The notes under the pieces were generated by a model that saw only the letters and a list, made by a program, of their open reading frames with translations, had not been told where the DNA came from and did no database searches. 30,753 nt of DNA, taken from contig CAZFGR010000018.1 in assembly GCA_964518475.1 (NCBI GenBank), positions 1-30,753 of the forward strand. The letters are read 5' to 3'. This DNA comes from an uncultured Nitrososphaerota archaeon (GTDB lineage Archaea; Asgardarchaeota; Njordarchaeia; Njordarchaeales; Njordarchaeaceae). This document shows, in pieces, positions 12,564 through 25,821 of the stretch (its first letter is position 1; the number at the start of each line of letters is the position of its first letter). The position numbers and the translations under genes were made by a program.

Positions 12564-13400
12564 TTAAATATTACAGATTCTGTCTAAACCATTTGTTAAT
12601 ACTTCCGCTAATTTGGGAATATAATACACGTTATAAGGCACATAAAGATATTTCTCACTTCTATTCTCAACCGCCTTCAAGAAAATCATTTTGTGGAATC
12701 GAGGTAATGAGTAAACATGCGTTCTGTGAACATTTTCGAGGCGTCTAAGAATTTTTCTAAGGAGAGTAACATAAATGTTTTTTTCATCTTCACTAACTTT
12801 TTCTGGGGGATAATCATAGTGAGCGGCCGGAAATAGCGTCTCTATCTGGGCTGGAACAAGAACTAGTGGTTCTGAAACGATATAAACCTGTACATATTTA
12901 GAAAGCTCTCGCTTATGCAACATTCTTCTAATCTTAAGTTGCATAAAGCTTCTACTATATGGCTTATGTTTCGAGCAGGGAAGATATAAAGCAATGGGAA
13001 ATGGTATTGGACGCCAGATCTCTAATAAATATTCATGATATATCCTAATTAAGGGGTGTGTAAACAAGTTATCTCCTTTAAGCAATATATCTCCAGGCTC
13101 TGCAAATATGTAGCTACATATTTCATTATGGTCAGTACGACCCCAAAGGCGAACGAGATAGTAGCCCCGAGGAGTGAGCTCGATCCATGAATCATCATCG
13201 TTTGAGAATTCGTAAATCAAAACTAGTTTAAATAGAAGTTTTGTGATCTGCGTTACCTCGTTTTCGGAAAGACCTGTTTTCTCAGTTAATTTCTCAATAA
13301 GATTTCTTTTCGGGATGTATTTTTCTTTGACAAAAACGTGGAGAATTTCAAGGACGTTTTCATCATTAAGCAACTTACTTAATAATTCGCTCTGTTTCAT
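12564..13400 (-). CDS. Winged-helix + DUF5591 (ArcS catalytic-core-like) fusion protein
   Basis: C-terminal LYLPCSKHKPYSRS...VSEPLVLVP..E..FPAAHYDYPP matches the ArcS/DUF5591 signature; N-terminal ~85 aa has a helix-turn-helix/wing pattern ending WIELTPRG. Confidence 0.8.
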   Translation of the reverse strand: MKQSELLSKLLNDENVLEILHVFVKEKYIPKRNLIEKLTEKTGLSENEVTQITKLLFKLVLIYEFSNDDDSWIELTPRGYYLVRLWGRTDHNEICSYIFAEPGDILLKGDNLFTHPLIRIYHEYLLEIWRPIPFPIALYLPCSKHKPYSRSFMQLKIRRMLHKRELSKYVQVYIVSEPLVLVPAQIETLFPAAHYDYPPEKVSEDEKNIYVTLLRKILRRLENVHRTHVYSLPRFHKMIFLKAVENRSEKYLYVPYNVYYIPKLAEVLTNGLDRICNI

Positions 13401-13402
13401 GA

Positions 13403-14530
13403 CTAATTTCCTCGATTCTCATTATTGATTAAGTATATTAGGAGATCCCTCTGTCGAATCTTATCTACATTACTCCAGATTTTTCTGATTTCTTCGGGAG
13501 AGAGCTTAGTAATATAAAGGGCAAGATCATATAATGTGCGAAAGCTTCCTGTTTTGGGAGGCATATACTTGGCCCAGTGAAGTATAACCCATATATTGAA
13601 GATAGCTCTATTCTCAAAAGTGCTGAAAACTGTTCTGTACAAAAACTCCTCTATAGTTTTTTTATCATATTTTGAAAGATGAAATGGAAAATGATCGATA
13701 CCGGAAATAATATCTATTAGCCTATTTAGTTCATCCCGAGAAAGCTTCTTTTTACCAAAATTGATCTCTCTATTTGTCACGTGTCTCTCCCCACCCCATG
13801 GAAGAATTATCTTTCCATAAGCTGCTTTTATACGCCAAGACGCGGAATCGGCAGAGCCTATCCTCAAGGCTCGTAAGATAGAGATTGTAGTAGCTGACCC
13901 TACCCCCATCACGTGTATTTTTTCTCTACCAACTTTAGTAGCTACATACTGGAGAGAAAGTATACCTTTTAGGCGCGACTTCTTTGTTCCTCTGACAGAC
14001 ATTAAGGGAGGCACGAATCCTCCGAAAGCTATTCTTTCACAACTAAACTCCTCCATATAAGTCTTTAGAAGATAGTCATATTCGTCAAGATTGGGTGAAA
14101 AATGGATAACAGGGATTATTGTCTTATCCGGAAATTTCCGCAACAAGTATTCGAAATTTTCAATGTTTTTGCGAATCTTTTTCTTTCTAATATGTAGTGG
14201 GTCGCCTGGGAGAGTAGGATAATCCAAGGATATATAGAAATCCGCATTTATCTCCTCATATATTCTAGCAACCTTCTCGACCGGAGTATTGAGACCTTTC
14301 CGCATTATCTGATAACCACCACTATCTACCCATAATCTAATGTGAGGAGCAAGTTCAAGAAAATTTCTGATGCCTCCACGCGCCTTTATCTTAGCCATAA
14401 TGCCCTTTTTCATCAATAACTCATACGAGCTGATCATCACATCTGTTACAGTATCGGGGAATACTTTCCATGGCTTGATATTTGAAAGTAAAATGTCACC
14501 TATGACAATCGTTGGATGCTCTCTAGACAT
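13403..14530 (-). CDS. tRNA-guanine transglycosylase-fold protein (TGT/DpdA-like paralog)
   Basis: VDSGGYQ, SLDYP, PVIH, AFGGFVP, IHVMGVG, ADSASW motifs; only one Cys seen, so no CxCxxC Zn site; no PUA domain. Confidence 0.85.
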   Translation of the reverse strand: MSREHPTIVIGDILLSNIKPWKVFPDTVTDVMISSYELLMKKGIMAKIKARGGIRNFLELAPHIRLWVDSGGYQIMRKGLNTPVEKVARIYEEINADFYISLDYPTLPGDPLHIRKKKIRKNIENFEYLLRKFPDKTIIPVIHFSPNLDEYDYLLKTYMEEFSCERIAFGGFVPPLMSVRGTKKSRLKGILSLQYVATKVGREKIHVMGVGSATTISILRALRIGSADSASWRIKAAYGKIILPWGGERHVTNREINFGKKKLSRDELNRLIDIISGIDHFPFHLSKYDKKTIEEFLYRTVFSTFENRAIFNIWVILHWAKYMPPKTGSFRTLYDLALYITKLSPEEIRKIWSNVDKIRQRDLLIYLINNENRGN

Positions 14531-21528: not shown

Positions 21529-21987
21529 TTGCATATGTTTTTATTCATATCGGTGAAATCAATGCTCGAACAACCTTTGAGAAGACGACTGTTGTTAATA
21601 GTTAGCATCCTGATGATCGTTTCGAATATCGGTTTATCAACGGTCTCTTGGAGGGTTATTAGAGAAGCTTCAATACTAGCTTTCGGACACACTCTATTAG
21701 CTACGAGTGTTAGTTATCTCGCTCAATTCGCGATAAATCTATTACTAATAGCGGGCATTATGCTTCTTCTCTATGCTACGGTTAAAAGTTTTAGTAAGCT
21801 ATTTGGGGAAGACATTGTTGGTAAGAGCTTAGTATTGGCAACCATAGGGCTGATAGCAAGTTTCTTGCTGCTCCTATTGATATCCATTACAGACCAATCT
21901 TGGATGGACTATGCCAAATACATTAGTATCCAAGTGGTGAGTTATGCTGGATTGATGACGTATAGGGCACTTACTTTCCAGCCCTAG
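21529..21987 (+). CDS. Small hypothetical membrane protein (about 4 TM)
   Basis: Four hydrophobic stretches; start uncertain (GTG 21553 or ATG 21562). Confidence 0.6.
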   Translation: MHMFLFISVKSMLEQPLRRRLLLIVSILMIVSNIGLSTVSWRVIREASILAFGHTLLATSVSYLAQFAINLLLIAGIMLLLYATVKSFSKLFGEDIVGKSLVLATIGLIASFLLLLLISITDQSWMDYAKYISIQVVSYAGLMTYRALTFQP

Positions 21988-22732
21988 CCACTATGTAAAA
22001 GATTTTTTCAGAATACGGATTCTCATACTCAATTACTTCCCAACCAGTTTCAGAAAGCATACTGATTAATTCTTTCAACGAGTAGATTAAAATACGTGCT
22101 TCTGCGTGACCAAGAAAAAGCATCCTATTTTCAACAGTTCTATAAAATGACCAATCAATACGAAGCCTTGACTCATCTTCTATGAAATTCATTTCTACCC
22201 TAACGGCAAAATCCCCAAAAATAAAGTGACCTGGTAAGTTCAGTGAACAGTAATCCTTGATTTTTTCACGCAGTATCAAGTCATACAACACGAGTAATCC
22301 CATAGGTTTAACGATTTTTCCTACTCTTGATAATATCTCCTTATCAGTTTCTGGTTCGTAATAACCTAGGCTTTGCCAAACTATGATGACAGCGTCAAAC
22401 TTTTTGTTCACGATTTCATCGACTTGTCGAGCATCGCCTAGAATGAAAAATGTTTTAGAGGACACATTATATTTCCTAGCGTTTTCTCTAGCTTTCTTTA
22501 TAAAGAATGGTGAAAAATCCACGCCAGTTACTCTATATCCTTTCTTGGCTAGAAAGATGCTTATTCTACCATCCCCACACATAAGATCTAGAATATCTCC
22601 TCGTATCACGCCGTACTTAGCGAGTAAAGAAGATATTTTCTCGGAATCTTTATTAGCATTTCTCCACTTTATCTGTGAAAGAATCCAGAAGAGATTTGCC
22701 TTATCAATAAATGTTTTAGTAGTCCATTCCAT
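21971..22732 (-). CDS. Class I SAM-dependent methyltransferase
   Basis: ILDLMCGDGR, VTGVDFS, GDAR, FDAV, KPMG. Confidence 0.9.
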   Translation of the reverse strand: MEWTTKTFIDKANLFWILSQIKWRNANKDSEKISSLLAKYGVIRGDILDLMCGDGRISIFLAKKGYRVTGVDFSPFFIKKARENARKYNVSSKTFFILGDARQVDEIVNKKFDAVIIVWQSLGYYEPETDKEILSRVGKIVKPMGLLVLYDLILREKIKDYCSLNLPGHFIFGDFAVRVEMNFIEDESRLRIDWSFYRTVENRMLFLGHAEARILIYSLKELISMLSETGWEVIEYENPYSEKIFYIVARAGK

Positions 22733-22776: not shown

Positions 22777-23526
22777 TTAGATATCAATAATAATTTCTTT
22801 ATGATTATGTTTCCAATAAGCGAATTCTTCGGGGACATTCTTTGGTCTACCTTTCACGAGCAAATATTTTTTCACTTTCTTCGTCACCGCAATAACTCCT
22901 CCGGGGAAATGTTCTTTTGTCCAAATATTTTTTAATAGCTTAGCGCTAGCCTTTGCACAATGTATTAACCAAGCTGGAGAATCGGGGCAGTCGAAAAAGA
23001 AAGCATTACGAGGAAGTTTTCCTTCTCCAATCTCTATAAGTGCTTTATAAGTCGCTAAACGGTAAGCTCTTACATTTAGGATTACGATAATCCATTCGAA
23101 ATGATATTTGGAGAGTATTCTCTTCAAACCTATTTTGACATAATAAGCATGCTTATAGAGGTTCTCGAAGTTATTTCTAACGAATTCGATCCAACTTGGT
23201 TTTATGTCGTGGCCTTTTACTCTTATCATTTCTTCTGGAGTCGCTAGAACAACAGCTCCTAATCTTTCTTTATCGTTATTCGGGTCCTTAAAGGTTATTA
23301 TAGAGTCCACTGCTGCAAACTGGATTCTTGAAAGATCTATTTTCTCGCGAGAATATATTCGGAGAATAATCTCCCAGCTTTTGCTCTCGAAGTAATTCCC
23401 ATTCTTAGCGCCTGGATTACATGGTAAAATTAGGAGTGTATCGCTTTTCATAGGTCTTCGCTCCAGAGATGCTCTAGGTCTTAAAAATGAAAACTTATAA
23501 GTTGCTATAAAGACAATTCTATGCAT
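22777..23526 (-). CDS. Hypothetical protein, possibly diverged DUF5591/ArcS-core-like
   Basis: LLILPC...YFESKSW...F...DS...LGAVV...EE...GHDIKP follows the order of DUF5591 motifs; true start is likely the internal MKSDT. Confidence 0.5.
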   Translation of the reverse strand: MHRIVFIATYKFSFLRPRASLERRPMKSDTLLILPCNPGAKNGNYFESKSWEIILRIYSREKIDLSRIQFAAVDSIITFKDPNNDKERLGAVVLATPEEMIRVKGHDIKPSWIEFVRNNFENLYKHAYYVKIGLKRILSKYHFEWIIVILNVRAYRLATYKALIEIGEGKLPRNAFFFDCPDSPAWLIHCAKASAKLLKNIWTKEHFPGGVIAVTKKVKKYLLVKGRPKNVPEEFAYWKHNHKEIIIDI

Positions 23527-24930: not shown

Positions 24931-25821
24931 GTGGAGACGATGAAGGTTGCAGTAGATTGTTTAGAGTGTTTATTTCACCGTGCTTTAGTGCTTACAAGGG
25001 ACATGCTCAAGCTCTCTCCAGAAGCGACCGTTGAAGCATGTAAGAAAGTTCTTCGCCTCCTGTTAAAAGAATTTAACCTAAATCAAGTACCTGCATGGCT
25101 TGGAACAAAGAGAGAAAAAATATTGCAGAGAGTACTTAAGGATCCGGATCCTTACAAAAAGTTTAAAGAAGAAACCACTATGTTGGTTATGAGACTTTGG
25201 AAAGAGGTTAGAGACAGATTTTTGGAGGGAGATGGTTTCGATACCTTTAGAAGACTATTACTTGCAGCGGCGGCAGCAAACTCGATAGATCCTTTTATTT
25301 TAGGTTATGACTTGAACCTTGATAATTTTCTGGAACAAGTAGCTAGTGCAGAGAAAAATCTAAGAATGGATCAATCAAGGGATCTTTGGAAAGATTTGTC
25401 CACGGCTAATAATGTACTGTATATTCTTGACAATGCGGGAGAGGCAGTAATAGATCTGGATGTAGTTCGGTTTATTAAGGAAAAACTCGGTAAGAAGGTA
25501 ATAGTAGCTGCTAGGGAGAAGCCCGTTCTCAACGATATTACCGTAGAAGAGGCCAAAAAACTAGGCTTTGGAGAAATCGCCGATAAGGTAGTTCCCGTGG
25601 GCTGGTTTATCGGTGTCTTCTTTAATGAGTTTGTAAATACTGAATTTCTGAAAACATTTGACGCTGCAGATCTGGTTATCGCGAAAGGAATGGCAGCATA
25701 CGAGAGCATGACAGAATATACATTCGAAAAACCAGTATACATAATCCTAAAAGCCAAGTGTAATCCAGTAGCTTCTCATATAGGAGTACCTCGTGGGAGT
25801 TATGTAATAAAAAGAATATGA
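24931..25821 (+). CDS. DUF89/ARMT1-like damage-control phosphatase
   Basis: DCLEC, ANSID, LDNAGEAVID, LND, AKGMAAYE, KAKC. Confidence 0.9.
   Translation: METMKVAVDCLECLFHRALVLTRDMLKLSPEATVEACKKVLRLLLKEFNLNQVPAWLGTKREKILQRVLKDPDPYKKFKEETTMLVMRLWKEVRDRFLEGDGFDTFRRLLLAAAAANSIDPFILGYDLNLDNFLEQVASAEKNLRMDQSRDLWKDLSTANNVLYILDNAGEAVIDLDVVRFIKEKLGKKVIVAAREKPVLNDITVEEAKKLGFGEIADKVVPVGWFIGVFFNEFVNTEFLKTFDAADLVIAKGMAAYESMTEYTFEKPVYIILKAKCNPVASHIGVPRGSYVIKRI

Follow-up and report, generated by a model that had tools for sequence, protein, structure and literature searches.

The two adjacent genes analyzed here are probably the modification arm of a Dpd-like system in archaea, one by which a 7-deazaguanine is placed in DNA. 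They lie on a 30,753-nt contig (CAZFGR010000018.1 of GenBank assembly GCA_964518475.1; this whole stretch is called the window below) belonging to a metagenome-assembled genome (MAG) of 2.33 Mb, 91% complete and 5.8% contaminated, whose named relatives are Candidatus Njordarchaeales/Njordarchaeota. The first gene encodes a 375-aa protein of the tRNA-guanine transglycosylase (TGT) superfamily, and the second a 278-aa protein in which a winged helix-turn-helix (wHTH) domain precedes DUF5591, the C1 core of ArcS. 7-Deazaguanine modification of DNA is established in bacteria (the Dpd systems), in phages and in archaeal viruses; no description of a cellular archaeal system of this type was found in the literature searched. 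An earlier note on this DNA, made from its letters alone, had already suggested a DNA-modification role for the pair. The analysis reported here is based on homology, fold, conserved catalytic residues, gene linkage and co-occurrence, and adds that the pair belongs to a larger conserved gene set.

The TGT-like protein is strongly basic (pI 9.75) and has no match in Pfam at E ≤ 0.01. The NCBIfam models for TgtA (TIGR00432, 31 bits, cut-off 350) and DpdA (NF041059, 18.9 bits, cut-off 200) both score it far below their thresholds. Its AlphaFold2 (AF2) model, with a predicted local distance difference test score (pLDDT) of 91.4, is the (beta/alpha)8 TIM barrel of the TGTs. Foldseek returned 191 matches at E ≤ 0.001 (best E 4e-10, template modelling (TM) score 0.6), and among the matches listed the best were arcTGT (1iq8/1j2b), bacterial and eukaryotic TGTs, and DpdA (7ui4), a DNA preQ0 insertase. 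A profile of the TGT-like family matches 1iq8 at 1.3e-14, with the DSG, LDxP, GGxVP and DSA motifs aligned. The motifs previously read from the sequence are all in place: DSGGYQ at residues 69-74, SLDYP at 101-105, PVIH at 140-143, GGFVP at 170-174 and DSASW at 228-232. Across 32 family members D69 (DSGG), D103 (LDxP) and D228 (DSA) are invariant, as is the Gly-Gly-x-Val-Pro loop, and in the profile alignment the three Asp fall at the positions of the catalytic and base-binding residues known from arcTGT and DpdA. The active-site set D95/D130/H181/D256 of DpdA is matched by D69, D103, H143 and D228, and its GG(M/V)VP loop by G170-G171-F172-V173-P174; a Val-Pro loop has been tied to preQ0 rather than to preQ1 (Gedara et al.). 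The His of PVIH, which had been taken to distinguish the protein from tRNA TGTs, is indeed present, but TgtA of the same genome also carries a His at the position aligned with H143, so that this residue is not diagnostic. The reported lack of a zinc site and of a PUA domain holds: the protein contains a single Cys (C164), which leaves no CxCxxC...H site, and profile matching detected neither a PUA nor any other C-terminal tRNA-binding domain. The idea that the protein might be a split ArcS N-terminal domain was rejected, as the ArcS models do not match it, the ArcS N-terminal (Nt) domains form a separate clade in the tree described below, and the canonical ArcS loci of relatives gave no match to the family profile at E ≤ 1e-10.

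When phage and virus genomes were searched with tblastn, the Sulfolobus viruses STSV4, STSV2 and STSV1, which are of the Bicaudaviridae type, gave the best matches for both proteins. The TGT-like protein is 35% identical to its STSV counterparts (E 8e-33), and the DUF5591 protein is 37-39% identical over aa 109-275 to STSV2_16, STSV1 ORF19 and STSV4 ORF9 (E 2e-22). The nearest named homologues are STSV2_15/STSV2_16, and STSV1, STSV2 and STSV4 each carry their two genes side by side in the order seen here. The STSV2 proteins have been named DpdA and ArcS2, and dCDG has been reported in STSV-2 DNA though the host lacks Q/G+ genes; in the same work, DpdA2 and ArcS2 of phage nt-1 led to dG+ in E. 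coli DNA (PMC10516641). The TGT-like protein is also matched by proteins of rudiviruses (SIRV, SBRV1) and of 32 Escherichia phages of the Queuovirinae. In SIRV2 (L104 1182-3322) the TGT-like gene is gp13. It comes immediately after gp14, whose annotation is that of an amino-acid permease and whose product could import a base or precursor, given that the host of the virus is devoid of 7-deazaguanine synthesis.

A maximum-likelihood tree of 43 sequences places all cellular TGT-like proteins in one clade (support 100/98) with five archaeal-virus proteins (STSV/SIRV/SBRV) and a protein of phage Seurat, set apart from TgtA (100/100) and from the ArcS N-terminal domains. The phylogeny thus puts the window protein outside the tRNA G15 enzymes and together with viral DpdA, in line with what the earlier note had expected. 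The archaeal-virus proteins are nested within the cellular family (100/100). The Seurat protein (CPT_Seurat33) is encoded beside FolE-QueD-QueC and sits on a long branch, its exact placement being unsure; CAjan, a relative of Seurat, has a validated DpdA.

In the 278-aa protein, DUF5591 (PF17884) matches aa 119-235 (E 4e-15, 56 bits). The ArcS alpha models NF040592 and NF053620 match only aa 101-220, with 55.8 and 50.8 bits (cut-offs 440 and 600), so that of the ArcS architecture Nt + C1 + C2 + PUA only the C1 part is represented and, as previously proposed, the RNA-binding domains are missing. The predicted catalytic core is recognizable as PCSKHKPYSRS at aa 141-151; PCSKHKPYSRSFMQ is present, but compared with the fuller ArcS motif PC-x3-KPY-x2-S-x2-H it has Gln in place of the last His. 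P, C, K, P and S of this motif are invariant in the short DUF5591 family. The AF2 model (pLDDT 93.0) superposes over aa 119-275 on AF0587 (2q07), a split-ArcS C-terminal protein, with a VIA Z of 15.2, and in the profile comparison 2q07 is matched at 8e-14. As in ArcS2, a DUF5591 core devoid of RNA-binding domains is encoded beside a DpdA-like gene, the extra N-terminal winged helix being the difference.

The N-terminal wHTH inferred from the letters is borne out by the model. The first 93 residues show the DSSP pattern H-H-b-H-H-b-b of a winged helix, and model range 1-96 aligns with MepR (5f6f), MarR (3voe), CzrA, CadC, TubR and YodB over 74-88 residues (VIA Z 9.2-10.6, with an rmsd, or root-mean-square deviation, of 2.0-3.4 Å). 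AspA of pNOB8 (4rs8), F93 of STIV (2co5) and BpsR (6pco) are matched at VIA Z 9.8-10.6 with rmsd of 4.6-4.9 Å. The resemblance thus spans MarR, ArsR/SmtB, PadR, TubR, AspA and STIV F93 (VIA Z 9-10.6). Foldseek with the 278-aa model also returned structures of SMUG1, a family-3 uracil-DNA glycosylase (UDG), at TM scores of 0.32-0.36 and probability > 0.9. With 222-252 columns, these alignments reach beyond the small wHTH domain; should it be the DUF5591 domain that they cover, the ArcS core may have an alpha/beta fold in common with UDG. Prediction of a heterocomplex of the two window proteins, run with alignments, gave a score of 0.00 and is uninformative on binding.

For gene linkage, one genome per species was scanned; this gave 112 relatives, and 80 loci were kept. 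The TGT-like family is common in Thermoproteales, Desulfurococcales and Njordarchaeota. DUF5591 is encoded directly downstream of the TGT-like gene in 5 of the 80 loci, plus locus L016, and a HerA-like DUF87 ATPase adjoins the TGT-like gene in 17. A Desulfurococcales locus (L079) carries, on one strand, the TGT-like gene, DUF5591, a NurA-like gene, a HerA-like gene and a gene for a 1478-aa NTPase. In L016 the order is HerA-like, a 1477-aa protein, DUF5591, TGT-like, a queuosine-precursor transporter (184 bits) and a member of the DUF328/YaaA family, DUF328 being the family of DpdC. NurA, HerA, the giant protein and the TGT-like protein are encoded contiguously in locus L022 and in a congeneric genome (G004). 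Two radical-SAM neighbours were considered and discarded: the one in Pyrodictiaceae as QueE, since its scores are generic for radical-SAM proteins (QueE model 28 bits, cut-off 260), and the one in Ignisphaera, which is the lipid synthase Tes and unrelated.

The genome that holds the window has its own version of this set. A 375-aa NurA, a 551-aa HerA-like DUF87 ATPase and a 1397-aa AAA/STAND-like NTPase are encoded in an operon on the minus strand of contig C5 (L102:8602-15581), and other archaea have homologues of all three in the same operon as the TGT-like and DUF5591 genes. Compared with L022, the C5 HerA is 58% and the giant NTPase 32% identical. The earlier statement that the pair lacks dpdB/dpdC partners is right as to those two families; the partners that do occur are NurA, HerA and the giant NTPase on C5. 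In PADLOC, the C5 HerA matches defence-associated HerA and DndH models; neither window protein (DpdA 15.5 bits) nor the giant NTPase has a significant system-level match there. Pfam recognizes only an N-terminal AAA_22 domain in the giant NTPase, and an Atlas feature search yielded STAND/ATPase_2-like leads only. At least four HerA-like paralogues are encoded in the genome, none of them reaching the model cut-off, so the C5 protein may or may not be the canonical repair HerA. Because the TGT-like and DUF5591 genes form one operon with NurA-HerA in relatives, the pair most likely marks the cell's own DNA for defence rather than tRNA.

The TGT-like gene, the short DUF5591, the HerA-like gene and the giant NTPase are all present in 6 of 7 genomes of the genus and all missing from the seventh (G005), which keeps TgtA; these and the following co-occurrence counts come from related genomes that are not independent, and are descriptive, not statistics. 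Genomes G007, G010 and G013 have TgtA and no DUF5591. Of 151 Thermoproteota genomes sampled, 23 carry the TGT-like gene and nine a short-frame DUF5591, six of these nine being among the 23; among the six, the TGT-like gene is followed directly by DUF5591 in three, and one genome has DUF5591 at a distance of 2.5 kb. Ignicoccus islandicus and one Pyrodictiaceae MAG have a wHTH-DUF5591 gene plus an unlinked TGT-like gene.

A Dpd-like system is the most economical account of these data, because the pair is homologous to a viral pair, is distinct from the tRNA enzymes, has no RNA-binding domains and is linked to DNA machinery, and because in one lineage it is accompanied by a preQ0 salvage gene and a DpdC-family gene. 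The suggestion of DNA modification has thereby gained support, chiefly from the STSV DpdA-ArcS2 pair as nearest named homologue and from the operon linkage to NurA-HerA. That DNA is the substrate, which base it receives, and that NurA-HerA-NTPase serves in restriction are inferred. In the mechanism that we propose, the 375-aa Zn-less enzyme would act on double-stranded DNA, taking out guanine and putting in a 7-deazaguanine obtained by salvage, with preQ0 as the likeliest base. The 278-aa enzyme would then convert the 7-cyano group, as viral ArcS2 does, with the DUF5591 core performing the chemistry and the winged helix tethering the enzyme to DNA or to a partner. This step might yield dG+, a lysine adduct, or else an amide/carboxy form; of the viral precedents, one gives dG+ and another dCDG. 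The mark would presumably be read by the NurA nuclease, the HerA-like translocase and the STAND-like NTPase of about 1400 aa. Taken to its full extent, the proposal is that Njordarchaeales and several Thermoproteota possess a hitherto undescribed cellular system of the restriction-modification type, in which a Zn-less DpdA-like enzyme would write preQ0 obtained by salvage into chromosomal DNA, a wHTH-ArcS2 enzyme would finish it (possibly as dG+ or as a lysine-adduct base new to DNA), NurA/HerA/the STAND NTPase of about 1400 aa would destroy unmarked DNA, and the Sulfolobus-virus DpdA-ArcS2 pairs would have their cellular source. We put forward this full version only tentatively, as less likely than not.

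Several observations weigh against a role in DNA modification. The family profile matches arcTGT (1e-14) better than bacterial DpdA 7ui4 (0.012), and the zinc site, stated to be conserved in bacterial DpdA (PMC10164549), is absent from the TGT-like protein. The winged-helix domain is mildly acidic (pI 5.4) and may for that reason have a protein as its ligand instead of DNA. At most Thermoproteota loci neither DUF5591 nor HerA stands beside the TGT-like gene, the pair and the NurA-HerA-NTPase operon are on different contigs of a MAG with the contamination given above, and the dependence among the genomes counted has already been mentioned. The tRNA pathway and the supply of base are to be considered as well. 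The search for separate tgtA and arcS genes, advised in the earlier note, succeeded for the former: a canonical TgtA (514 bits, 710-aa frame) is encoded on the minus strand of contig C3 (L001:724-2856). No other ArcS was found, the window DUF5591 gene being the only ArcS-like gene in the genome. Since the genus lacks another ArcS-type enzyme, the DUF5591 protein could act on preQ0-tRNA. QueC and QueD, which were likewise to be checked, were not found in the 91%-complete MAG, nor were YhhQ, QueF/QueF-like and RaSEA (for RaSEA, the best TIGR01210 match in the genome has 37.8 bits, cut-off 212), and of the 14 genomes searched in the order, not one has QueC above 40 bits. As no genes for preQ0 synthesis or known transporters were found, the base would need to be salvaged. 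Other families of the phylum have QueC (170-206 bits) and a canonical ArcS of 650-700 aa. TgtA itself was found in 29 of 31 genomes searched, including 13 of the 14 of the order (the exception is G012), and G15 modification of tRNA in the order would use preQ0 salvaged through a transporter of another kind, or something else.

Two side observations concern these enzymes. TgtA of the genus is unusually long, about 710 aa compared with 582 aa in P. horikoshii and with frames of about 520-570 aa in other families of the phylum. In another genome of the phylum (L114, G022:C275, 435-3533) a gene distantly related to the TGT-like family (116 bits) is convergent to a canonical 655-aa ArcS, a hint that there is more than one architecture in which ArcS-type enzymes and this family are linked.

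The lack of canonical ArcS, QueF-like, Gat-QueC and RaSEA in a genus that has TgtA could be explained by a non-canonical tRNA archaeosine pathway, in which the DUF5591 protein would substitute for ArcS on the preQ0-tRNA made by TgtA, and the TGT-like protein would be a second tRNA transglycosylase acting at another position, or a scaffold of the split-ArcS type. Public annotations do label the family 'tRNA-ribosyltransferase', the literature reports separately encoded ArcS Nt and C1 domains in some archaea, the distant family member of G022 adjoins a canonical ArcS, and the wHTH-DUF5591 gene of Ignicoccus lies in a housekeeping neighbourhood. We consider this pathway unlikely, taking into account that the TGT-like protein keeps both catalytic Asp, clusters apart from TgtA and from ArcS N-domains, is not matched by ArcS models and has no PUA domain, that the TgtA-bearing genomes G005, G007, G010 and G013 do without DUF5591, and that the genes are linked in operons to NurA, HerA and the giant NTPase and have viral homologues.

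The same linkage to NurA-HerA end-processing machinery would suit an enzyme of TGT fold that acts on DNA without inserting a 7-deazaguanine, that is, a glycosylase or an enzyme exchanging another purine, which would work with NurA-HerA in repair or in the attack on foreign (e.g. modified viral) DNA. Such an enzyme would fit with the failure to find genes for preQ0 synthesis or known transporters in the genome or the order, and with a chromosomal synteny that is stable and housekeeping-like; a 2025 preprint reports antiviral DNA glycosylases directed at modified bases. We judge it distinctly improbable, as the protein retains the base-binding Asp, conserved in the family together with a GGxVP loop of preQ0 type, and the gene is coupled to DUF5591, for which the only chemistry known to us is on the preQ0 nitrile. 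In addition, a queuosine-precursor transporter and a DpdC-family gene adjoin the pair in L016, and salvage must exist anyway because the organism's own TgtA also requires preQ0 from outside. It is hardly credible that the pair is left over from a virus, domesticated or decaying, and has no current cellular role: viral homologues are nested in the family and its distribution in Thermoproteota is patchy (23/151 genomes), but both frames are intact, the catalytic motifs are invariant, the GC content of the pair (37.3%) is close to that of the window (38.4%), no viral genes lie near it in the window, and the flanking synteny is identical in another species at 76% protein identity.

The gene arrangement described by the earlier note was reproduced. 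Both open reading frames are on the minus strand with an intergenic gap of 2 nt, and the second gene is presumably co-transcribed with the first. Flanking order is identical in a second Njordarchaeales genome, where the orthologues are 76% (TGT-like) and 55% (DUF5591) identical; as they share synteny at this level of identity, both genes can be taken as real. The coordinates are collected in the table.

Table. Features of the gene pair, in window coordinates.
Feature	Position	Strand	Basis and remarks
TGT-superfamily DpdA-like transglycosylase, 375 aa	13403..14530	-	Fold, motifs, tree; Zn-less, PUA-less, pI 9.75
wHTH-DUF5591 protein, 278 aa, candidate ArcS2-like nitrile-modifying enzyme	12564..13400	-	DUF5591 match, AF2 model, STSV homology
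Winged-helix domain, aa 1-93 of the 278-aa protein	13122..13400	-	DSSP pattern and VIA structural matches
DUF5591 (ArcS C1 core) domain, aa 119-275	12576..13046	-	PF17884, PCSKHKPYSRS at aa 141-151, 2q07 superposition

The neighbours of the pair in the window encode a ferredoxin, a rhomboid protein, a nitroreductase, NucS and an aminotransferase. The frame at 22777-23526 (-) was considered as a second DUF5591-like gene and rejected, as hhalign against the short DUF5591 family gave a probability of 1.3% and Pfam no match. A class I SAM methyltransferase gene (21971-22732, -) lies downstream of it, and these two genes are kept together in a related genome (L011/L012). In ten Pyrodictiaceae loci (L073:7910-8821 and nine others) a gene for an ARMT1-like damage-control phosphatase is found about 1.5 kb upstream of the TGT-like gene; the window contains an ARMT1-like homologue at 24931-25821 (+), about 10 kb from the pair, and this may be a coincidence.

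The locus and its relatives provide a concrete five-gene candidate system, and as family members exist in cultured archaea (Pyrobaculum, with P. oguniense and P. islandicum; Thermoproteus tenax; Vulcanisaeta distributa, where the gene is linked to HerA; and Ignicoccus islandicus) the prediction can be tested. If correct, it would explain the origin of the STSV/SIRV enzymes, bear on the presence of 7-deazaguanine in the DNA of organisms without preQ0 synthesis, and add a NurA-HerA-based reader or effector to modification-dependent defence.

Comparison with known systems gives different degrees of likeness. With the archaeosine pathway (TgtA + ArcS-RaSEA) the window pair shares the TGT fold, the DUF5591 catalytic core and the PCx3KPYx2S motif, but both proteins score far below the model cut-offs and lack PUA, C2 and Nt domains, RaSEA was not found, TgtA is encoded separately, and the tree splits the family from TgtA and ArcS-Nt. 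BREX-related capture (BRC) comprises HerA/FtsK, TGT, GNAT, PglZ, DUF6079, STAND and DUF4007 (NAR 2026, PMC12839542). It resembles the present set in the linkage of a HerA/FtsK translocase with a TGT homologue, for which a role in marking self DNA has been proposed, in its large AAA/STAND NTPase, and in that some of its members are archaeal (PMC12839542). Unlike BRC, the genes described here include no match to PglZ, GNAT, DUF4007 or DUF6079, with NurA and DUF5591 instead, neither of which the BRC paper mentions (PMC12839542); the likeness is one of component lists. The paper on Dnd/HerA mentions neither TGT nor NurA.

Bacterial Dpd consists of DpdA/DpdB/DpdC for modification and DpdD-K for restriction. 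In common with it, the candidate system has a TGT-fold enzyme with the Asp/Asp/Asp/His positions and the preQ0-type loop, a second enzyme predicted to act on the nitrile, and linked ATPase and nuclease genes as presumed restriction arm. It differs in that the ParB-like DpdB was seen neither at the window locus nor in its neighbours, that a relative of DpdC (DUF328) occurs only in L016, that the zinc site is missing and the DpdA model gives 19 bits (cut-off 200), and that the second enzyme is of DUF5591 instead of DUF328, with NurA, HerA and a STAND-like NTPase as the candidates for restriction. Unlike DpdA + ArcS2 of STSV1/STSV2/STSV4, the window pair is cellular, chromosomal and syntenic across species; its TGT-like protein is longer by about 65 residues at the N-terminus and 55 at the C-terminus, its DUF5591 protein adds the winged helix, and it is associated with NurA, HerA and the giant NTPase. 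The two have in common the protein families, the gene order and the tight adjacency, a DUF5591 core that stands alone without Nt, C2 and PUA, and a host devoid of 7-deazaguanine synthesis genes, as in the Njordarchaeales-type genome.

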